From a virus: DNA of 17,388 nucleotides. A model generated the notes under the pieces. The model was not told where the DNA came from. It ran no database searches and was given only the letters and a program-made list of their open reading frames with translations. Below, piece by piece: positions 2,075 through 16,824 of the stretch. Both the position numbers and the translations under genes were made by a program. The stretch lies in the UHGV virus genome UHGV-1838449; one strand, written 5' to 3'. Within the stretch, counting starts at the first letter, position 1; the number at the start of each line of letters is the position of its first letter.

Positions 2075-2362
2075 TTAGTCCTCATCCACTTCAACGCCAT
2101 CTTTCAGCGTGATGCCGTGCCAATCATCAGCCCAACTGGTTAGCCCTGGCGCATCAATGCTAGGCATATAGACGCTTGCAGTGTGGTAGCCCTTATCGTT
2201 ATCAATGCTGGCAACGTGCTCGCCGTTGTATGCGCTCAGCGTGTCCAGGACGCTATAAAACTTTCCTCCGGCTGCCCTGAAATCCTTTACAGCCTTCACA
2301 AGGCGATTCCACGCTTTTTCCTGTTCTGGCGTCAGGTCGATTAATTCCTGCAAAGTTGCCAT
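2075..2362 (-). CDS. Hypothetical phage protein (95 aa)
   Basis: ATG start directly after the stop of the upstream gene, with an AAGGAGAG ribosome-binding site inside the 26-bp repeat. No recognised motif. Confidence 0.5.
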   Translation of the reverse strand: MATLQELIDLTPEQEKAWNRLVKAVKDFRAAGGKFYSVLDTLSAYNGEHVASIDNDKGYHTASVYMPSIDAPGLTSWADDWHGITLKDGVEVDED

Positions 2363-2363
2363 A

Positions 2364-2861
2364 TCACTCTCCTTTGATGCGAATGCCAGTGGTACTCATT
2401 CTCCTGATTTCCCAGAGCACACGAGGAACACCACCGTTTCCGACCGGATCGCGTTTACTCCGCAGGGCGACGCTTGATTCCGCCCAGCTTTTTCTTGGAG
2501 GAAGCTCTTTCACACGAACAAAACCAGCTGCGCGGAGAGATGCTCCTGATTCATCTGCCTGGGTGTACGTAATACAACGTTGATAACCCATAGCCTTTGC
2601 TGCCCGCCAGACAGCACCATAAAGCGCGCTGTTAGCGTTGCGTTCTCCTGTGGTACATGTGCGATTTACTTCAAGCGTTAATCCATCGTCCAAATGTCGT
2701 GCAACAGGTCGACCGGCTGTCGCCACACCTATCAATTCTCCGGCATCATTTCTCAGACCAATGCTGAATTTATGCCCCACCGGGGGTTTATTGTGTCGGT
2801 GATGTCTGGATATAAACGCCTTCGCAACACGAAGAGTAATCGGTGAAATCTGCACTCTCAC
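2364..2861 (-). CDS. Hypothetical phage protein (165 aa), C-terminus GIRIKGE
   Basis: GTG start overlapping the TGA of the upstream Ea22-like gene. The last 7 residues and the 26 bp encoding them are identical to the end of the Ea22-like gene. Confidence 0.5.
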   Translation of the reverse strand: MRVQISPITLRVAKAFISRHHRHNKPPVGHKFSIGLRNDAGELIGVATAGRPVARHLDDGLTLEVNRTCTTGERNANSALYGAVWRAAKAMGYQRCITYTQADESGASLRAAGFVRVKELPPRKSWAESSVALRSKRDPVGNGGVPRVLWEIRRMSTTGIRIKGE

Positions 2862-3541
2862 TCTCCTTTGATGCGAATGCCAGCGTCAGACATCATATGC
2901 AGATACTCAACTGCATCCTGAACCCATTGACCGCCAATCCCGTAATAGCGATGCGTAATGATGTCGATAGTTACTAACGGGTCTTGTTCGATTAACTTCC
3001 GCAGAAACTCTTCCAAGTCACCAGTGCAGTGCCTGATGACAGGAGTTTTCCCAGGATGGCGAACAACAAGAAACTGATTTCCGACTTCACGGACTTCGTT
3101 GCTTTCCAGTTCTGCAATGCGCTTACTTCCATCCGCGATTACTCCCTCGTAATATTCACGCTGCTCGTTGAGTTTTGATTTTGCTGCTTCCAGCTCAACA
3201 CGCAGTTTCCCTACCGTTAGCGCAATATCCTCGTTCTCCTGATCGCGGCGTTTTATGTATTGCTGGTTTCTTTCCCGTTCATCCAGCAGCGCCAGCACAG
3301 TAGCTGGACTGGCTGCGGCGATGAATTCAGCATTGGCCTGCTGTTCCATTTGGAAATCTTCATCGAAACCGCTTTCTGGATGCGCTCCTTCAATTCTGCA
3401 AATGGGAATATATCCAGCAGCCTCGCGATGAATTAGTGCATCATCACCATCAAATCGGCCCTCTCCATATTCTAGCGACCACACACCACACGTTGCTTTC
3501 TCTGCCTTTTCACGCAGTGCCTGGTAATTAATTTCGCTCAC
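2858..3541 (-). CDS. Ead/Ea22-like protein
   Basis: 227-aa ORF with N-terminus [21 protein letters not shown] and a central coiled-coil-like region, as I recall for Ea22-like proteins of lambdoid early-left operons. GTG start overlapping the upstream stop. Confidence 0.6.
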   Translation of the reverse strand: MSEINYQALREKAEKATCGVWSLEYGEGRFDGDDALIHREAAGYIPICRIEGAHPESGFDEDFQMEQQANAEFIAAASPATVLALLDERERNQQYIKRRDQENEDIALTVGKLRVELEAAKSKLNEQREYYEGVIADGSKRIAELESNEVREVGNQFLVVRHPGKTPVIRHCTGDLEEFLRKLIEQDPLVTIDIITHRYYGIGGQWVQDAVEYLHMMSDAGIRIKGE

Positions 3542-3966
3542 TGGTTGCCTCCTTTGCGAAGCTGGGCGGCGAACTCGTTAAGTGATATGTAGCAATCTCC
3601 AAATGTTAACGAACCGCTCGACTGCATATGCTCCATAGCCATCTCCACGCCCTGCGCCCGTACTTCAGCCAGGAAGGCGTCGGTGGCCGGGGTTTTGCAG
3701 GACATTTGAATTGCCTTCTCAGTGTATAAAACACCCGTTCGATTGGCGGTATACATGATGGTGTTTACAGCATCTTGATGTGCTGATTTCACAGCCTCAA
3801 CTTCAGCAGCCAGCGCCGCGCACTTGGCCTCCGCTTCAGCAAATTTACGCACCAGATACTCAGCATTTGTTTCGTTAACCTTTAAATCTCGTGGGATGCA
3901 TTTACCTTTCAGAAAACCATCCATCTCAATTAGTGTCATTTGTTTCATTTCTTTCCACTCCACCAC
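3538..3966 (-). CDS. Hypothetical phage protein (142 aa from GTG; internal ATG starts at 3948/3939 possible)
   Basis: Long ORF in the coupled early-left gene chain, Ala/Glu-rich helical region. No recognised family. Confidence 0.5.
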
Positions 3967-4110
3967 ATCGCATTCAGATATTTGTTTTGATTCACTGACG
4001 GAAAAGAATTTCTCTTAAGCAATTCCTCTCTCGATGGCATTGGCTTTACGCGCTGGCGAATAATCATTTCTGCCGGAAGAATGCCGGGATTGTATGCAAG
4101 TCCTCTCATG
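3949..4110 (-). CDS. Small ORF (53 aa), translationally coupled
   Basis: ATG at 4110 overlaps the TGA of the upstream gene in an ATGA arrangement, and its stop overlaps the next gene start. Not in the ORF track because it is under 60 aa. Confidence 0.3.
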
Positions 4111-10342: not shown

Positions 10343-11170
10343 ATGGGGTATGTCTCTATACACCGCCAGTTTATGGACAGCAGGCTCTATAAAGACTCTC
10401 AGGCAGTACATCTTTGGCTTCACTTAATCCTCAAGGCTAATCACGAATCTACTGTCGTCAATACGGATATCGGTACGATAACTGTTGATCGCGGTCAGAT
10501 GATAACTGGACGCCCGTCGCTGGTCAGAGAAACATTCATCCCCGACAACAAAGTTCGGAGCTTATTACGGACTTTTGAGTCGAAAGGTATGCTTAATATT
10601 TGCTCGATGGGGAAGAAATTTAGCCTGTTTACAATCGTTAAATATGACGATTTTCAGGCAAAAAATTGTCCAACGGTTGTCCAACGGTTGTCCAACGCAA
10701 ACACCAGTAATGGCGCGGCTCTCAGCGGAGATTGTCCAACGGTTGTCCAACGGTTGTCCATAAACAATAATATAAATAATATCTCTAATACTGACGTATT
10801 AGAGAGTACCGCAGCAGACAAAAAGTCTGACAAGAAAAAACCTTCCGTTAGCTGTCAGGATGTTGTCGATGCTTACCACGAAATCCTTCCTGAAGCTCCA
10901 AGAATTCGCGCACTGAATGACAAGCGTAAAAACCAGATCCGAACGTTCTGGCGCAAAGCCGGAGTGATAACCCGCCAGCTTGACGGGCATGGGTTCACGA
11001 TGCAGGACTGGAGAAATTATTTGAGCTACGTTGGCGAAAATTGCCGATGGATGTTCGAAGAACGCCCAAACCATCAACGCGGAACCGTCTGGCACAAAAA
11101 GGGATTTGATTTCCTGCTTAACGACAATACCTACCTGAAAGTTCGTGAGGGTGAACACGATGACCGATAA
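10343..11170 (+). CDS. Replication initiator (O-like function) with the origin iterons inside its coding sequence
   Basis: Preferred ATG at 10343 has an AGGAGG site 8 nt upstream; the ORF track start is 10280. Origin iterons and an AT-rich tract lie mid-gene as in lambda O. Directly followed by a DnaB-type helicase gene. Not lambda O by sequence. Confidence 0.7.
   Translation: MGYVSIHRQFMDSRLYKDSQAVHLWLHLILKANHESTVVNTDIGTITVDRGQMITGRPSLVRETFIPDNKVRSLLRTFESKGMLNICSMGKKFSLFTIVKYDDFQAKNCPTVVQRLSNANTSNGAALSGDCPTVVQRLSINNNINNISNTDVLESTAADKKSDKKKPSVSCQDVVDAYHEILPEAPRIRALNDKRKNQIRTFWRKAGVITRQLDGHGFTMQDWRNYLSYVGENCRWMFEERPNHQRGTVWHKKGFDFLLNDNTYLKVREGEHDDR
10666..10800. repeat. Replication origin: six 11-bp iterons in two triplets plus an AT-rich unwinding tract
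   Basis: TTGTCCAACGG tandem at 10666, 10677, 10688 (third ends GC) and at 10732, 10743, 10754 (last partial, TTGTCCATA). Cluster offset is 66 bp, i.e. six 11-bp units. Followed by AACAATAATATAAATAATATCTCTAATA (10763..10790). Confidence 0.7.
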
Positions 11171-12596
11171 TTTTTATGCGCCGCCCCATAGCATCGAGGC
11201 AGAGCAGGCGGTGATTGGTGGATTGCTTCTGGATGATGACAGCAGTGAGCGCGTCCAGAAAGTTCTGGCGATGCTGAAGCCTGATTCATTTTACAGCCGA
11301 CCACACAAAATCCTTTTCGAAGAAATAACCAGAATGCACCGGGAGCAAAAGCCAGTAGATGGCCTGACGCTTTTCGATGAACTGGAGCGCAAAACGTTAA
11401 CGGTGTCTGTTGGCGGTTTTGCTTATATCGCTGAGATCGCAAAGAACACGCCAAGCGCAGCAAACATCGTTGCCTATGCAATGCAGGTTCGTGAAACCGC
11501 AATGGAACGCTACGCCATCAACCGCATGACTGAAGCGACGGAATTGCTCTATTCCCGCAACGGAATGACTGCAACGCAGAAGTACGAAGCTATTCAGGCG
11601 ATTTTCACGCAACTGACAGACCATGCAAAAACCGGATCGCGTCGCGGCCTTCGCTCATTTGGTGAGGTCATGGAAGACTGGGTTAGCGACCTTGAGAAGC
11701 GATTTGACCCATCAGGCGAACAACGGGGAATGAGCACAGGGATCCCATCGCTGGACAGGATGCTGTCACCGAAAGGTCTGGTGAAAGGCTCTCTGTTTGT
11801 CATTGGCGCTCGCCCTAAGATGGGGAAAACGACGCTATACAGCCAGATGGCAATCAATTGCGCAGTGCATGAGAAAAAGCCCGCTTTGATGTTCAGCCTT
11901 GAAATGCCAGGTGATCAGATACTGGAAAAACTGGTAGGGCAGAAGTCTGGTGTTAACCCGAATATTTTTTACCTTCCGGCGACAAATGACGCTGATGACG
12001 GCTATCAGGGTGATTACGATGGTGACTTCAACAGGGCGATCGAAACAGCCAATCGCTTGAGTGAAATCGACCTGCTTTACATCGACGACACGCCGGGATT
12101 ATCTCTGGCTCAAATCGTCAGCGAAAGCCGTCGAATCAAGCGAGAAAAAGGATGTGTTGGCATGATTCTGGTCGATTACCTGACACTAATGACCGCTGAG
12201 AAGGCCGATCGCAACGACCTTGCTTACGGCATGATCACCAAAGGACTGAAGAACCTTGCCAAAGAGCTTGATTGCGTTGTTGTGCTTCTGACACAGCTTA
12301 ACCGCGCACTGGAAAGCCGAACCAATAAACGCCCATTACCAAGTGACTCACGAGATACAGGGCAGATTGAACAGGATTGCGATTATTGGGTTGGGATCCA
12401 TCGTGAAGGCGCTTTTGATGACAGTGTTCCACCTGGTGAAACCGAACTAATCCTTCGTCTCAATCGTCATGGCAATACCGGCACGGTGTATTGCATTCAG
12501 GCAAATGGCGCTATTTATGACACAGACCAACAGTCTGCTGAAATGCGCCGACGTGAACGCGAGGAGCCGCAGTCCAAGAAGAAAGGAGGATTCTGA
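11160..12596 (+). CDS. DnaB-family replicative DNA helicase (phage-encoded, P22 gp12-like arrangement)
   Basis: About 478 aa from the ATG at 11160 (ORF track GTG at 11145). Walker A GARPKMGKTT, DnaB N-terminal domain pattern, RecA-like core (ILVDYLTLM, LLTQLNR). Start overlaps the initiator stop. Confidence 0.85.
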   Translation: MTDNFYAPPHSIEAEQAVIGGLLLDDDSSERVQKVLAMLKPDSFYSRPHKILFEEITRMHREQKPVDGLTLFDELERKTLTVSVGGFAYIAEIAKNTPSAANIVAYAMQVRETAMERYAINRMTEATELLYSRNGMTATQKYEAIQAIFTQLTDHAKTGSRRGLRSFGEVMEDWVSDLEKRFDPSGEQRGMSTGIPSLDRMLSPKGLVKGSLFVIGARPKMGKTTLYSQMAINCAVHEKKPALMFSLEMPGDQILEKLVGQKSGVNPNIFYLPATNDADDGYQGDYDGDFNRAIETANRLSEIDLLYIDDTPGLSLAQIVSESRRIKREKGCVGMILVDYLTLMTAEKADRNDLAYGMITKGLKNLAKELDCVVVLLTQLNRALESRTNKRPLPSDSRDTGQIEQDCDYWVGIHREGAFDDSVPPGETELILRLNRHGNTGTVYCIQANGAIYDTDQQSAEMRRREREEPQSKKKGGF

Positions 12597-12623
12597 TGAC
12601 CATCTACATCACTGAGCTAATAA

Positions 12624-12656
12624 CAGGCCTGCTGGTAATCGCAGGCCTTTTTATTT
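12624..12656 (+). terminator. Intrinsic terminator after the helicase gene
   Basis: Hairpin CAGGCCTGC-loop-GCAGGCCT (12624..12648) followed by TTTTTATTT. Confidence 0.6.
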
Positions 12657-12672
12657 GGGGGAGAGGGAAGTC

Positions 12673-13089
12673 ATGAAAAAACTAACCTTTGAAATTCGAT
12701 CTCCAGCACATCAGCAAAACGCTATTCACGCAGTACAGCAAATCCTTCCAGACCCAACCAAACCAATCGTAGTAACCATTCAGGAACGCAACCGCAGCAT
12801 TCGGCAAAATGCACGCCTTCACGCGATGCTATCTGAAATAAGTAAGAAGGCTACATATCATGGAAAAGCAAGAAATATTGAGTTTTGGAAGGGGTTATTC
12901 GTTTCTGGTTGGCAGATTGCAACCAACCAGCACCCTGAGATTATATCAGGGTTAGAAGGTGAGCTAATAAACATCAGAGAGAGTACGGCGACTCTATCTG
13001 TAAAAAAAATATCCGAAATAATGGACTACATAGAAGCATATTGTGCCATGAACTCAATTCATCTTAGCGAATGGAGGAATTATGATTGA
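12673..13089 (+). CDS. ninB: NinB (Orf-family recombination mediator); N-terminus lambda-identical, remainder divergent, 3' end interrupted by an HNH gene
   Basis: From the ATG at 12673 (GGAGAGGG site): MKKLTFEIRSPAHQQNAIHAVQQILPDPTKPIVVTIQERNRS matches lambda NinB as I recall it. The rest is NinB-like but divergent and AT-rich. Ends ...HLSEWRNYD; the ancestral tail appears on the next ORF. Confidence 0.85.
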   Translation: MKKLTFEIRSPAHQQNAIHAVQQILPDPTKPIVVTIQERNRSIRQNARLHAMLSEISKKATYHGKARNIEFWKGLFVSGWQIATNQHPEIISGLEGELINIRESTATLSVKKISEIMDYIEAYCAMNSIHLSEWRNYD

Positions 13090-13684
13090 GGTTTGGGTAG
13101 ATATCGAAGGAATTCCATTTTATCAGGTTAGCAATAAAGGAAATTTCAGGTCTATTACGAGGGAAATTACAGTAACATCAACCAGACAGAGGCCATATAA
13201 GAAAATAATTAATGGCACTAGCGTAAAACCATTCAAGTGCAAGTCGACAGGATATCTTCAAATAAAGGTATACGGTAAGAAATACAGCGCCCACAGGATA
13301 GTTGCGAAAGCATTCTGTACAGGGTTCTGTGATGGCTTGGTAGTTAATCACAAAAATGGGCAAAGAGATGACAATAGGGCTGAAAACCTTGAATGGGTAT
13401 CACATTCTGAAAACTCAAAGCACGGATATAAACAAAATGGAAGAATACCTATATCGCTAGGTAAATTTAGTGGTGATCATCCTGCCAGTAAAGCTGTTAT
13501 TTCTACTGACATGAAAACTGGGGAGGAGGTTTATTATGAAGCAGCTATGGATGCTGTCAGAGAAGGATTTGATAGTTCGTCAATTAGTCGTTGCTGTAAT
13601 GGCGAAAGCTCATATCACAAAGGAAGATTCTGGCGATTTGCAAATGAAACAATGAAAGCGCGATGGGGAGACCGGGCAGCATGA
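13082..13684 (+). CDS. HNH homing-type endonuclease (NUMOD4 plus HNH_3 motifs) inserted into the 3' end of ninB
   Basis: 200 aa. N-terminal [20 protein letters not shown] (NUMOD4-like) and HNH core [25 protein letters not shown]-rich. Start codon is embedded in the last codons of ninB; the last 9 residues KARWGDRAA match the lambda NinB C-terminus as I recall it; stop overlaps the ninD ATG (ATGA). Confidence 0.8.
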
Positions 13685-13854
13685 TGCGATGTTATCGGTG
13701 CGGTGAATGCAAAGAAGATAACCGCTTCCGACCAAATCAACCTTACTGGAATCGATGGTGTCTCCGGTGTGAAAGAACACCAACAGGGGTGTTACCACTA
13801 CCGCAGGAAAAGGAGGACGTGTGGCGAGACAGCGACGAAGTATCACCGACATAA
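13681..13854 (+). CDS. ninD: NinD-like small zinc-ribbon protein
   Basis: 57 aa, [16 protein letters not shown]...CLRCERTP, two CxxC pairs. Matches my recollection of the lambda nin-region Orf57. ATGA overlap with the upstream stop. Confidence 0.6.
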
Positions 13855-13997
13855 TCTGCGAAAACTGCAAATACCTTCCAACGAAACGCTCCAGAAATAA
13901 ACGCAAGCCAATCCCAAAAGAATCTGACGTAAAAACCTTCAACTACACGGATCACCTGTGGGATATCCGGTGGCTAAGACATCGTGCGAGGAAATGA
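13821..13997 (+). CDS. ninE: NinE-like protein
   Basis: GTG start at 13821 after AGGAGGA; 58 aa reading [57 protein letters not shown], as recalled for lambda NinE. Overlaps the ninD 3' end in another frame; stop overlaps the next ATG. Confidence 0.55.
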
Positions 13998-14401
13998 CAA
14001 TGCTTTTAATTCAACCTGGATTTGGCCTTAGCATCCAAAAAGGCCACATGTTTGGCGAGAAAGAGTCACAACGAAAAATGGTGTCTATCCGGTTGCCATT
14101 TATCAGTATTTATTGGCTAAACAGGGAGGCAACAAATTATTGGTATACATGCGCCAGAGCAGCATTTAACGACCCTGACTGGTTTGTTAAAAACCACCAC
14201 GCAGTTCGTCAGGCAAAGAGAAAGGCCAACATGACATACATGAAGGCGTATCAAAAAGCATGGAAAGAACACCGCGATCGATACCAACAAGACATGGAAA
14301 AGCTTGAATCAGAAAACATGGAATTAAGACGAAAGCTCGGTGAAGCAAAACGAGACATTGATGCTTACAAGCGACTTTTTAATGGTGAAAGCCATGCTTA
14401 G
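13994..14401 (+). CDS. Hypothetical nin-region protein (135 aa; start uncertain)
   Basis: ATG at 13994 overlaps the ninE stop (ATGA). C-terminal half is a basic coiled-coil-like helix. Later ATG starts (MFGEK..., MVSIR...) are possible. No confident family. Confidence 0.45.
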
Positions 14402-14570
14402 CCCATCCCAAACCCTTCAATACCAGAAAGAAAGCGTCGAGCGAGCTTTAACGTGCGCTAACTGCGGTCAGAAGCTGCATGTGCTGGAAGTTCACGTGTG
14501 TGAGCACTGCTGCGCAGAACTGATGAGCGATCCGAATAGCTCAATGTACGAGGAAGAAGACGATGAGTGA
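14394..14570 (+). CDS. ninF: NinF-like small zinc-binding protein
   Basis: 58 aa, [58 protein letters not shown], matching lambda NinF as I recall it. Confidence 0.65.
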   Translation: MLSPSQTLQYQKESVERALTCANCGQKLHVLEVHVCEHCCAELMSDPNSSMYEEEDDE

Positions 14571-14775
14571 TTACATGAAATGGTATCTCTGCCACCGCTG
14601 GTTAATTAAGTTTGCTGTAAAAGACTGGATGACAGCGGATGCCAACAAGCTTAAGCAACGAAAGGACTATTACTACGCCAGAATGAAGGAAAACTACTGC
14701 TCAATTCGCACTCGCATATTTATTAAAAAAGACCTTCAGTCAATTCTTCAATTGCGAGGGAAGGTAAATGGCTAA
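14563..14775 (+). CDS. Hypothetical protein (70 aa)
   Basis: ATG overlaps the ninF 3' end; its stop overlaps the next gene start. Basic, Tyr/Trp-rich. No recognised family. Confidence 0.4.
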   Translation: MSDYMKWYLCHRWLIKFAVKDWMTADANKLKQRKDYYYARMKENYCSIRTRIFIKKDLQSILQLRGKVNG

Positions 14776-15058
14776 CCTACGCAAAGAAGCACGCGGCAGA
14801 GAATGCCAGGTACGTATTTACGGCGTATGCAATGGTAATCCTGAAACTACAGTTCTGGCACATTACCGGATGGCTGGAATTTGCGGAACGGGAATGAAGC
14901 CTGACGACCTGATCGGCGCATGGGCTTGTAGCGCGTGTCACGATGAAATCGACCGACGCACCCATAACCTCGACAACAAAGACGCCAGACTTTACCACCT
15001 CGAAGGCGTGATCAGGACGCAGGCGATACTGCTGAAGGAGGGGAAGATTAAGTCATGA
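14768..15058 (+). CDS. ybcO: YbcO-like DUF1364 protein (putative nuclease of lambdoid nin regions)
   Basis: 96 aa, MANLRKEARGRECQVRIYGVCNGNPETTVLAHYR...CSACHDEIDRRTH, closely parallel to E. coli DLP12 YbcO as I recall it. Confidence 0.7.
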   Translation: MANLRKEARGRECQVRIYGVCNGNPETTVLAHYRMAGICGTGMKPDDLIGAWACSACHDEIDRRTHNLDNKDARLYHLEGVIRTQAILLKEGKIKS

Positions 15059-15417
15059 ACGAATATCAGTTTGTGCTTCCATACCCGCCGTCGGTGAATA
15101 CCTACTGGCGAAGACGGGGAAGCCAATACTACATCAGCGATAAAGGCCAGAAATACCGAAAAGACGTTCAGCAAATCATCCACCAACTCAAGTTAGATAT
15201 TTTCACCAAATCACGGCTCCGCATCAAAGTCATCGCAGACGTTCCAGACTCCCGCCGCCGCGACCTCGATAACATCCTGAAAGGTTTACTCGACTCTCTT
15301 ATCCACGCCGGATTTGCGGAAGACGACGAGCAATTCGATGACATTCGCGTAATTCGTGGTGTGAAAGTACCAGGCGGACGGCTTGGAATAAAAATCACCG
15401 AACTGGAGAACGTATGA
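15055..15417 (+). CDS. rusA: RusA Holliday-junction resolvase
   Basis: 120 aa with the RusA signature PDSRRRDLDNILKGLLDSL...GGRLGIKITELE. Translationally coupled to its neighbours. Confidence 0.85.
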   Translation: MNEYQFVLPYPPSVNTYWRRRGSQYYISDKGQKYRKDVQQIIHQLKLDIFTKSRLRIKVIADVPDSRRRDLDNILKGLLDSLIHAGFAEDDEQFDDIRVIRGVKVPGGRLGIKITELENV

Positions 15418-15602
15418 ACGCCACAATTCAAACGATACCAGAGCTTCTTATCCAGACACGAGGCAATCAGACCGAAGTGGCAAGGATGCTTTCCTGCGCA
15501 AGAGGAACAGTGCTCAAGTACAACCGAGACAGCAAAGGCGAGCGTCATGTAATAGTTAACGGCGTCCTGATGGTCACGCCAGGAAAAAAGGGAAGACGAT
15601 GA
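15414..15602 (+). CDS. ninH: NinH-like small DNA-binding protein
   Basis: 62 aa; KTIPELLIQTRGNQTEVARMLSCARGTVLKY parallels lambda NinH (KTIPDMLVEAYGNQTEVARRLKCSRGTVRKY). Confidence 0.65.
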   Translation: MNATIQTIPELLIQTRGNQTEVARMLSCARGTVLKYNRDSKGERHVIVNGVLMVTPGKKGRR

Positions 15603-16117
15603 GCATAAGAGAGCTAAACCTCACCAAAGAACAGCACGATTGGCTGAATGGCTGGCTTGAGCTGTGGGGCGCATGGGTTTATTCAGGTCGTCTGGAAAAG
15701 CGCATGAGCAGCGTAATAGCGAAGTTCATGGAGAGCGTAGAGCCGGGAAGAGTTATGACAAGGCCAATGTGTAATGATGATGATGGAATGTTGATTTCTC
15801 AGGTCGTCGATTCCGTCATGTACATTGACAAGAAAGCCTTTGGCATCCTCCTCAGCTACTACGCTCATGGTTCATCTAAGCGAGCAATTGCATCCTACTA
15901 TCACGCGACTGCAAAGCCACGCAAGATGTGTGGACGTGGTGGCGAGGGATGGAGAAAACCTTCACTGGCAACCTGTAGAAACGAAATTGACGACATCCTG
16001 AAAGCGTCGTTATTTGTTTTGTACCAACCAATGCAAAATGCTTTCAAAATGCGTAAACGTGTTGAGAAAGTTAAGCATGTTGCTGTTAAAAGCCTTGACA
16101 TGCAATTAGCCATTTAG
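15599..16117 (+). CDS. Q: Late-gene antiterminator Q (phage 82/933W-type family, not lambda Q-type)
   Basis: 172 aa. LELWGAWV...PMCNDDDGMLISQVV...LLSYYAHG parallels my recollection of the 933W/82-type Q family. Last nin-region gene, immediately followed by a strong promoter and a short terminated transcript. Confidence 0.7.
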   Translation: MSIRELNLTKEQHDWLNGWLELWGAWVYSGRLEKRMSSVIAKFMESVEPGRVMTRPMCNDDDGMLISQVVDSVMYIDKKAFGILLSYYAHGSSKRAIASYYHATAKPRKMCGRGGEGWRKPSLATCRNEIDDILKASLFVLYQPMQNAFKMRKRVEKVKHVAVKSLDMQLAI

Positions 16118-16311: not shown

Positions 16312-16824
16312 ATGAAAGAAATAAAATTAACGCCAGAAATGGTGCTTTCTGTTGTTGATTACAATCCATCATCAGGCGACTTTCACTGGAGATGGAGGCG
16401 GGGAAGAGAGAGGACCACTTTGACATGGAACTCTCGTTTTGCTTTCAAGAAATGCTCATCAATAAATTCTGATGGGTATTTAATGATTATGATTAATGGT
16501 AAAGCATACCCTGCTCACAGACTGGCATGGTTGATTGTTTATGGCACCATGCCCGATGGTTTTATTGATCACATCAACAGGGTAAGAACAGATAACCGGA
16601 TATCAAATCTTCGTCTTGTCACTCATTCCGAAAATATGCAGAACAGGAAAATTCAGAAGAATAATAAATCTGGATACCGTGGCGTGTCTTGGGATGCTAA
16701 GTACGGGAAATGGAGAGCAAGAATTAATGCGTCTGGAAAGTGTATTAACCTTGGATACCATGATACTGCCGAACTTGCCGCTGCGGCTTTTGAGGCCGCC
16801 AGAATGAAATATCATACCGTTTAA
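16312..16824 (+). CDS. HNH endonuclease with C-terminal AP2 DNA-binding domain (homing-endonuclease-like)
   Basis: 170 aa. HNH core DHINRVRTDNRISNLRLVTHSENMQN and AP2-like SGYRGVSWDAKYGKWRARINASGKCINLGYHDTAELAAAAFEAA. Sits just downstream of tR-prime. Confidence 0.8.
   Translation: MKEIKLTPEMVLSVVDYNPSSGDFHWRWRRGRERTTLTWNSRFAFKKCSSINSDGYLMIMINGKAYPAHRLAWLIVYGTMPDGFIDHINRVRTDNRISNLRLVTHSENMQNRKIQKNNKSGYRGVSWDAKYGKWRARINASGKCINLGYHDTAELAAAAFEAARMKYHTV

Follow-up and report, generated by a model that had tools for sequence, protein, structure and literature searches.

UHGV virus genome UHGV-1838449, whose full length of 17,388 nucleotides (nt) is the window analysed here (focal region 12673-13854), carries a lambda-type ninB gene of which the core has been exchanged for a block that joins the core of a different NinB subfamily, here termed NinB*, to the gene of a putative HNH endonuclease. 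That codons 43-137 of the lambda-type ninB (284 nt) were swapped for an 855-nt block, with both junctions in frame, is well supported. As judged from the sequence, the first 42 codons of the resident gene head a chimeric yet apparently complete NinB. Because the HNH open reading frame (ORF) ends in the last nine codons of the resident gene, with their stop codon and an ATGA overlap, ninD stays coupled to the gene upstream of it. The features concerned are the following.

12673-13089, plus strand: ninB, with its ATG at 12673 and its TGA at 13087-13089; 138 amino acids ending in HLSEWRNYD (Pfam NinB, E=1.2e-40)
12673..12798, plus strand: left arm, codons 1-42 of the resident lambda-type ninB, with 100% lambda identity, giving the start codon and N-terminus of the chimeric NinB
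12799..13089, plus strand: NinB* core, codons 43-138 plus stop, from a different NinB subfamily, with the motif FWKGLFVSGWQIAT, a native short C-terminus (SEWRNYD) and a GC content of 0.396
13072..13084, plus strand: GGAGG Shine-Dalgarno sequence (13072-13076, in the W-R codons of NinB*) and ATG of the HNH ORF (in the Y-D codons)
13082-13684, plus strand: HNH ORF, 200 amino acids, stop codon at 13682-13684 (Pfam NUMOD4, 1.5e-13; HNH_3, 8e-12)
13082..13654, plus strand: body of the putative HNH endonuclease, codons 1-191, with NUMOD4, HNH_3 and an I-HmuI-like C-terminal DNA-binding region (PHROG HNH families)
12799..13654, plus strand: the block, i.e., NinB* core and HNH body, AT-rich and near-invariant across phages
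13655..13684, plus strand: right arm, the 3' end of the resident lambda-type ninB (its last 9 codons, KARWGDRAA, and TGA), with which the HNH ORF now ends
13681..13854, plus strand: ninD (Pfam NinD, 1.8e-41), 100% identical to lambda, its ATG overlapping the borrowed TGA as ATGA
12625..12657, plus strand: tR2-type intrinsic terminator of lambda, from a terminator scan, identical to lambda and within the lambda-identical left flank, 5' of ninB
13821-13997: ninE, in the window after ninD

The gene order in the window is thus tR2-type terminator, ninB, HNH ORF, ninD and ninE. Between 12600 and 12798 the window is identical to lambda except for one mismatch, 5' of the ninB start codon. An earlier reading, made by a model from the letters and their translations (the sequence-only reading), had noted lambda identity for about 42 NinB residues followed by divergence; residues 1-42 are indeed identical to those of lambda, and DNA homology is then gone until 13654/13655. 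Over its final 30 nt the HNH ORF agrees with the 3' end of lambda ninB at 27 of 30 positions and with HNH-free lambda-type ninB-ninD alleles (L163, L118, L143, and L245) at 30 of 30; lambda NinB does have the C-terminus that the sequence-only reading ascribed to it. This match of the tail to lambda-type ninB is beyond chance. In lambda it is ninC, not ninD, that comes after ninB, and the missing ninC is unconnected with the HNH gene, since HNH-free lambda-type ninB-ninD junctions exist. Between a helicase gene upstream (GC content 0.50) and ninD-ninE (0.48), the diverged part of ninB has a value of 0.396, the HNH body one of 0.386, and the tail one of 0.63. The cassette envisaged by the sequence-only reading is therefore AT-rich (GC 0.39), as it had said, but the tract extends over ~856 bp (12799-13654) instead of ~600 bp and takes in the diverged two-thirds of ninB. 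The last 12 nt of the left arm, CGCAACCGCAGC, are also present in otherwise unrelated ninB 5' ends.

To find empty-site alleles, the two flanks of the window were joined and searched against complete genomes of Escherichia coli. The best joined-flank matches in E. coli (99.1% over all 1746 nt) are without the HNH gene. E. coli ECE204 (L245) matches the window over 10760-12798 at 98.3% and over 13654-14565 at 99.0%, and between these flanks it holds a lambda-type ninB core of 284 nt, compared to 855 nt in the window (12799-13653); its 30-nt tail is identical to that of the window and ninD follows directly after ninB. Four IMG/VR contigs (L141, L163, L118, and L143) are HNH-free counterparts like ECE204. 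The homology of the window to the HNH-free L141, L163, and L245 stops exactly at 12798, which places the left breakpoint between 12798 and 12799; the right one lies between 13653/13654 and 13654/13655. Because the empty-site alleles hold the 284-nt lambda-type core, the event was a replacement and not an insertion between adjacent codons. Microhomology at the right junction, i.e., AATG(G) shared by the end of the HNH body and a CTCGAATGG-type resident allele, was considered and rejected as the site of exchange; a simple crossover there would leave the reading frame one base out.

The diverged core falls in a widespread NinB subfamily. The NinB domain is present (Pfam over residues 3-130; alignment to lambda Orf, 1PC6, E=3.4e-34), and the conserved RS-x-QN and core residues of PF05772 are kept, including the invariant R41 and N46. 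NinB* aligns to residues 1-126 of lambda Orf only; after the equivalent of lambda K126 it continues for 8 residues, compared to 20 in lambda, and it has no counterpart of the C-terminal helix around W137 that helps lambda Orf to bind DNA (PMC4118853), as is normal for the subfamily. Members at 54-87% identity end in WRNYD, WRNYE, WRKYD, WRGYDN, GGRYE, GKNYD, or ISYE, and more distant HNH-free members in DRRYD, WRKYDMYS, EDAWA, ADWAQR, or ERWAA. The WRNYD end is kept in relatives carrying either of two unrelated HNH types, and the W-R-x-Y-D codons double as the Shine-Dalgarno sequence and start of the next gene. NinB* thus appears to be complete, with an end, (W)RxY(D/E) or short and aromatic, that seems native to its subfamily. 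A NinB*-core allele running into the lambda-type KARWGDRAA tail was found neither among the 120 listed of 176 homologues nor in 80 IMG/VR and 7 genome loci. In the closest NinB* clade (54-87% identity, Y-D/E-type tails) an HNH gene comes next in all members examined, overlapping by the same 8 nt; it is mostly of the NUMOD4-HNH_3 type but HNH_3(-AP2) in L041, L043, and L212. No HNH gene follows in more distant members of the subfamily that end differently (L044, L045, L050, L052, and L053).

The overlap arises because the ATG of the HNH ORF (13082) lies inside AGGAATTATGATTGA, in the last codons of ninB (AGG AAT TAT GAT TGA), with GGAGG sitting five bases 5' of it. This 8-nt overlap is predicted to couple translation of the HNH ORF to that of ninB, and the same arrangement of overlap and Shine-Dalgarno sequence is repeated in SEN22, L005, L042, L041, and L212-L216. 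Promoter-like sites for separate transcription of the HNH gene were not in excess (4 found vs. 2.9 expected from shuffles), and the gene is probably expressed by read-through and coupling.

I-HmuI is a site-specific homing endonuclease, and the HNH protein aligns with it (PDB 1U3E; phmmer, E=4.7e-14) over residues 55-186 against residues 36-170 of the 174-residue chain. An HNH catalytic motif of the HNH_3/I-HmuI type is present (Pfam HNH_3, 8.2e-12), in which the general-base histidine (His90, I-HmuI His75) and the metal-ligand asparagine (Asn111, I-HmuI Asn96) are kept. Extra DNA-binding modules are NUMOD4 (1.5e-13) and an I-HmuI NUMOD-like match (8.5e-4; 19.3 bits, below the curated cut-off of 27). 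No Rfam family reached its gathering threshold anywhere in the window, and no group I intron was recognisable; an intron- or intein-encoded endonuclease was rejected on this result, on the NinB* gene having its own stop codon, and on the HNH ORF lying in another frame. Membership of DUF968 (PF06147) was likewise rejected, as no match at E<=0.01 was obtained and the two ORFs are in different frames.

Relatives of the HNH protein that lack the right-arm tail are those of SEN22 from Salmonella (78% identity), which ends in RFWRFADERMAA (ERMAA), of L213 (72%), which ends in FAHERVNA, and of L042 (67%), which ends in FGDKGKVAA. In these genomes the HNH gene is an independent ORF with its own C-terminus, an outcome that the sequence-only reading had itself named as speaking against its model. 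The tail also falls past the end of the I-HmuI alignment, which stops at RFWRF, residue 186 of 200. Given these short ends and the limit of the I-HmuI alignment, KARWGDR is a seven-residue add-on specific to the E. coli clade.

These results bear on the model first put forward for the locus, in which a ~600-bp HNH cassette landed between the SEW and KARWGDRAA codons of a single ninB, gave it a new RNYD end and left co-converted point differences in its flank. Much of what it described was borne out: the ATG inside the last ninB codons, the KARWGDRAA end with its TGA overlapping the ninD ATG (ATGA, 13681), the borrowing of the ancestral tail and stop with ninD coupling kept, and the existence of insertion-free alleles ending in KARWGDRAA. 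In addition, GAATGGA at the NinB* end and CAATGA at the end of the HNH body resemble lambda-type GAATGGAAAGCG. However, a single insertion is already contradicted by the empty-site core, which has no detectable DNA homology to NinB*, by the WRxY(D/E) end native to the subfamily, and by the short ends of the HNH relatives, and it would lead one to expect the NinB*-core/lambda-tail allele that is missing among the listed homologues. We consider it highly improbable. Co-conversion survives insofar as the diverged ninB segment and the HNH gene move together; the divergence itself is the core of a separate subfamily and not a set of flanking point differences.

The block (12799-13654) was found in 63 phage records, mostly Stx-converting phages, plus P27 and APC_JM3.2. 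Among 5426 E. coli genomes, 77 carry the block, at 80 places, and 1307 the lambda-type core, at 1491 places; the NinB* core and HNH gene always occur together. Of 120 unbiased tail-pattern loci, 4 had the block. Presence and absence of the block at one fixed site is seen in otherwise homologous genomes (L245, L141, and L163 vs. the window). Over 18 distinct block-bearing loci, nucleotide diversity (pi) is 0.157 in the left arm (12673-12798), 0.0033 in the NinB* core, 0.0103 in the HNH body, and 0.081 in the 30-nt tail. The block haplotype identical to that of the window (856 nt) occurs with three arm haplotypes and two tail haplotypes, and with ninD or ninE downstream. The block acts as a moving unit, and its variable arms show haplotypes that are also present in HNH-free loci.

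In 151 tail-containing loci the tail haplotypes track the downstream gene (methyltransferase, ninC, ninD, or ninE). This covariation is largely alike under an HNH or a lambda-type core, with one rare haplotype common to both, and tail diversity is 0.074 in HNH-bearing vs. 0.067 in HNH-free loci. Since polymorphism in the tail begins as little as 5-6 nt away from the junction, crossovers inside the tail poorly explain why recipient-type tails are kept; whole recipient-type tails would fit the repair of a break within the replaced core.

When the window is compared with SEN22, the ratio of nonsynonymous to synonymous polymorphism (pN/pS) comes to ~0.10 in the NinB* core and ~0.16 in the HNH gene, where synonymous sites are saturated, and the left arm (126 nt) has only 3 differences. 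Because of the few differences in the arm and the saturation in the block, the arms are seen as part of a shared lambda-type pool and the blocks as old. Pairwise identities of NinB* and of the NUMOD4-type HNH protein correlate (r=0.81). Both ORFs are intact in 31 of 34 E. coli-type copies, the exceptions showing a one-base loss in an A8 run or a ~1.2-kb insertion, and both genes appear, from these patterns, to be kept functional. The A8 run lies inside NinB* (13003-13010 in the window); in L038 and L040 it is one A shorter, which shifts the NinB* frame (end SVKKYPK) and reflects either a slippage-prone site or a sequencing error. The ~1.2-kb insertion is carried by the HNH gene of L027 (3549-4746), where the flanking matches overlap by 4 nt, and in L005 (3786-4512; Mixta sp.) the HNH gene is broken by an element with IS1-like InsA/InsB-type ORFs, as recognised by eye from the translations. 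With these genes interrupted, the nuclease is dispensable in at least some prophages.

The nested arrangement is met in two further lineages. In L212 NinB* is followed by an HNH_3 (AP2-type) ORF ending in QAIDWARRFGETKRAA (cited also as WARRFGETKRAA), and the HNH-free L217 and L218 have a long-tailed NinB that ends in QALEWARRFGETKRAA and shares its N-terminus with L212; DNA homology between L212 and these two is confined to 146 nt on the 5' side (94.5%) and 53 nt of tail (90.6%). In L214 and L215 NinB* is followed by a NUMOD4-HNH ORF ending in ERDMSSAVMRWAQQHNRSSAA (cited also as SSAVMRWAQQHNRSSAA), and the HNH-free L219 and its relatives end in SEESSAVMRWAQQHNRSSAA; here arms of 93 nt (98.9%) and 55 nt (98.2%) enclose 317 nt without and 897 nt with the HNH gene. 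Across the three lineages the junctions differ (codons 42/43, ~48, and ~28) and so do the tails (9, 16, and 17 codons); every junction is in frame and every ATGA overlap is kept. The nested, frame-preserving design appears from these comparisons to have arisen independently in three lineages.

Some further loci show related arrangements. L039 (IMGVR_UViG_2751185961_000005; 2412-2999 and 3001-3405) shows the nesting in mirror image, on the 5' side of ninB: codons 1-32 of a P27-type ninB open an HNH_3+AP2 ORF, and the NinB* downstream has received a new start and substitute N-terminus (MKCVKYHL..), a 587-nt segment standing in place of 10 nt of phage P27. The same locus also bears a NUMOD4-HNH block, with the tail KARWGDRVA. 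HNH ORFs of the Pantoea and Mixta type end in AEIKQWIGYSGDKNRSAA (L216, 3458-3518) and IEKIEVWVGYTEEKNRSAA (L005, 4745-4804), ends that may be borrowed NinB tails too; an HNH-free counterpart of this tail (..W[IV]GY..KNRSAA) gave no pattern matches in IMG/VR, and a GAYTGG variant of the L212 tail pattern gave none either.

As to the cause of the replacement, we consider it rather likely that the HNH gene encodes a free-standing, I-HmuI-like homing endonuclease that travels with a probably cleavage-resistant ninB allele, as in the intronless homing of T4. The nested structure is an observation, and it is homing that we infer from it by analogy. When phages co-infect a cell or a prophage is induced, an HNH-free lambda-type ninB would be nicked or cut by the HNH enzyme at some point of the replaced core; NinB* DNA would be immune, having no detectable DNA homology to the lambda-type core. 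Resection would run from the break to the closest homology, i.e., the conserved ninB 5' end on the left and the 30-nt tail with whatever follows it on the right, and a block-bearing genome would serve as the template for repair by phage recombination functions (the prophages that match most closely have an annotated RecT recombinase) or by those of the host. Repair would copy NinB* and the HNH gene together and leave the recipient arms intact. We propose that such an invasion would be cheap, because NinB* arrives too and the phage would keep an Orf-type recombination mediator.

Several points weigh against homing. The cleavage site, nuclease activity, and biased inheritance of the HNH protein remain putative, and the position of I-HmuI Asp74 is an asparagine (VVNHKNG) in all NUMOD4-type members looked at, which makes HNH activity an assumption. 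No co-conversion gradient is discernible in the left arm, because its last 54 nt are near-invariant in HNH-bearing and HNH-free alleles alike. The methyltransferase-type tail of APC_JM3.2 stands beside ninC, which needs an ordinary crossover at the GCTGCATGA gene boundary. Moreover, nin regions are mosaic in any case, and lambda Red is able to recombine homologies that are short or diverged (PMC2327257), so that a nuclease may not be needed to explain the pattern. Finally, the pairing of NinB* and HNH is very old and co-diverging, which could point to a useful function; a pairing of this kind would outlast the classic invade-and-decay cycle of a selfish endonuclease gene.

The mosaicism of nin regions could by itself have produced the locus, if NinB* and the HNH gene were swapped in at conserved stretches, namely the RNRS-coding 12-mer and the boundary of the ninB tail with GCNGCATGA, with the HNH gene as a mere passenger. 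The nin genes shuffle freely, four different genes come after the tail, and HNH-free alleles also reassort the 9 nt before the tail relative to the tail itself; Red/Rad52-like recombinases exchange diverged or short homologies (PMC2327257; PMC3945230), and the putative status of the nuclease function fits a passenger. Nevertheless, we regard this explanation as unlikely, since the nested in-frame design is found in three lineages, each with an HNH gene and with two unrelated HNH types among them, since recipient-type tails are kept up to the junction, where 5-6 nt of homology is too little for a crossover, and since the HNH gene is under purifying selection.

Another explanation, which we think quite improbable, is that the NinB* mediator, without its C-terminal helix, and the HNH protein cooperate as a functional two-gene module that spread through its benefit to the phage, as a split counterpart of the Orf-HNH fusions (DUF968) of Gram-positive phages. 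The HNH gene after every closest-clade NinB* examined, with distant members lacking it, the correlated protein identities, and the purifying selection on both genes agree with such a module, and NinB-HNH fusions are documented (PMC4118853; PMC2034487). However, DUF968 gave no match and the architecture, with I-HmuI homology and NUMOD, is that of site-specific homing enzymes; another HNH family (HNH_3-AP2) occupies the same slot in L041, L212, and L043; copies are disrupted by insertion sequences or other insertions (L005 and L027); and the pair is missing from ~95% of the lambda-type-flanked E. coli ninB loci. In each of the three lineages the last 9-17 residues of the nuclease ORF come from the C-terminal DNA-binding helix of the resident NinB, the very part that NinB* lacks. 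A combination of homing and benefit is therefore conceivable but doubtful: NinB* and the tail-bearing HNH protein might act as the mediator and nuclease of a bipartite initiator of recombination, in which the helix is provided in trans and which homes and also improves phage recombination. If true, such an initiator would correspond, in split form, to the Orf-HNH fusions known from Gram-positive phages.

The homing that we favour has its nearest likeness in the T-even phages. In T4, segF beside gene 56 is said to undergo intronless homing, a finding attributed to Belle and colleagues in 2002. The systems of T-even phages (segF/gene 56, segG, and mobE between nrdA and nrdB) resemble the present locus in that a free-standing endonuclease gene stands beside a diverged, presumably resistant target allele, and in that the endonuclease gene and flanking DNA enter genomes without them, with presence and absence at a fixed site. 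Here, in contrast, the block resides in a temperate lambdoid phage or prophage and is nested in its target ORF, each junction being in frame; the endonuclease ORF ends in the last codons of the target and its stop/start overlap, and the case is known from sequence alone. Free-standing T4 endonuclease genes, e.g., mobE, mobilise themselves and flanking DNA (PMC2790892), and T-even intronless homing is also the subject of PMC2988022.

With I-HmuI, a nicking enzyme encoded by a group I intron of the Bacillus phage SPO1, the window protein shares homology of the catalytic domain and the C-terminal DNA-binding region; it differs in not being intron-encoded, in its N-terminal NUMOD4, in the change of Asp74 to Asn, and in its 9-residue foreign tail. 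The Orf(NinB)-HNH fusions of Gram-positive phages (DUF968/PF06147; PMC4118853; PMC2034487) likewise have a NinB-family domain and an HNH domain encoded together, but two ORFs are present here and the domain is HNH_3/I-HmuI-like rather than of the DUF968 zinc-finger type. In gene 31 of the P22-like phage epsilon34 (EaE N-terminus plus HNH; PMC2629481) an HNH ORF also takes part of a resident ORF in frame, although it borrows the N-terminus, whereas the window HNH ORF borrows a C-terminus, stop codon and coupling. L039 represents the N-terminal version of borrowing at ninB itself. In Aeromonas phage Aeh1, nrdA is reportedly split by mobE; there, as here, an endonuclease gene lies inside a coding region with gene function kept, but Aeh1 reassembles two halves, whereas in the window a substitute gene core keeps the function.

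The HNH gene has already been annotated in many records ("HNH endonuclease", "NUMOD4 domain-containing protein"), and HNH genes are marked in lambdoid ninR regions in Figure 1A of Curtis et al. (2014), although they are not discussed in its text. In the literature searched, we found no account of the NinB tail on this HNH ORF or of recurrent nested replacement. As a case of a selfish nuclease gene spread among lambda-like phages, the locus is tidy but fairly ordinary. It provides a sequence-resolved example from temperate lambdoid phages, among them Stx-converting prophages of pathogenic E. coli, in which a homing-type nuclease gene brings a substitute allele of its presumed target and nests without breaking operon translation, and it accounts for the common annotation oddity of a "NUMOD4 domain-containing protein" that ends in NinB residues. 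The ninB gene appears to be a repeated entry point for nuclease elements. If homing holds, nuclease-driven allele replacement would be one source of nin-region mosaicism, and lambda genetics would ease the study of free-standing endonuclease homing outside the T-even phages.

Other genes of the region deserve mention. A second, free-standing HNH gene of 170 amino acids is present in the window at 16312-16824 on the plus strand (HNH_3, 2e-18; AP2, 1.6e-8; phrog_99, 1e-73), with a GC content of ~0.39-0.44 and just 3' of a Q-like antiterminator (15599-16117). Elsewhere in its nin region L215 has an HNH_3 ORF (2306-3043) two genes downstream, and SEN22 (L004) a further HNH gene, SEN22_48 (3812-4093); nin regions seem to gather several endonuclease genes. 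The window also encodes a YbcO putative nuclease at 14768-15058 (Pfam, 1.8e-44; PHROG label HNH) and, at 15055-15417, a RusA resolvase where lambda has NinG/Rap. Many unrelated nin genes (NinB, NinC, methyltransferase, NinG-like, and others) end in AA with GCNGCATGA and a stop/start overlap, as observed in the nin regions of the window, L001-L004, L041, L042, and L077, and this boundary looks like a conserved site of module exchange.

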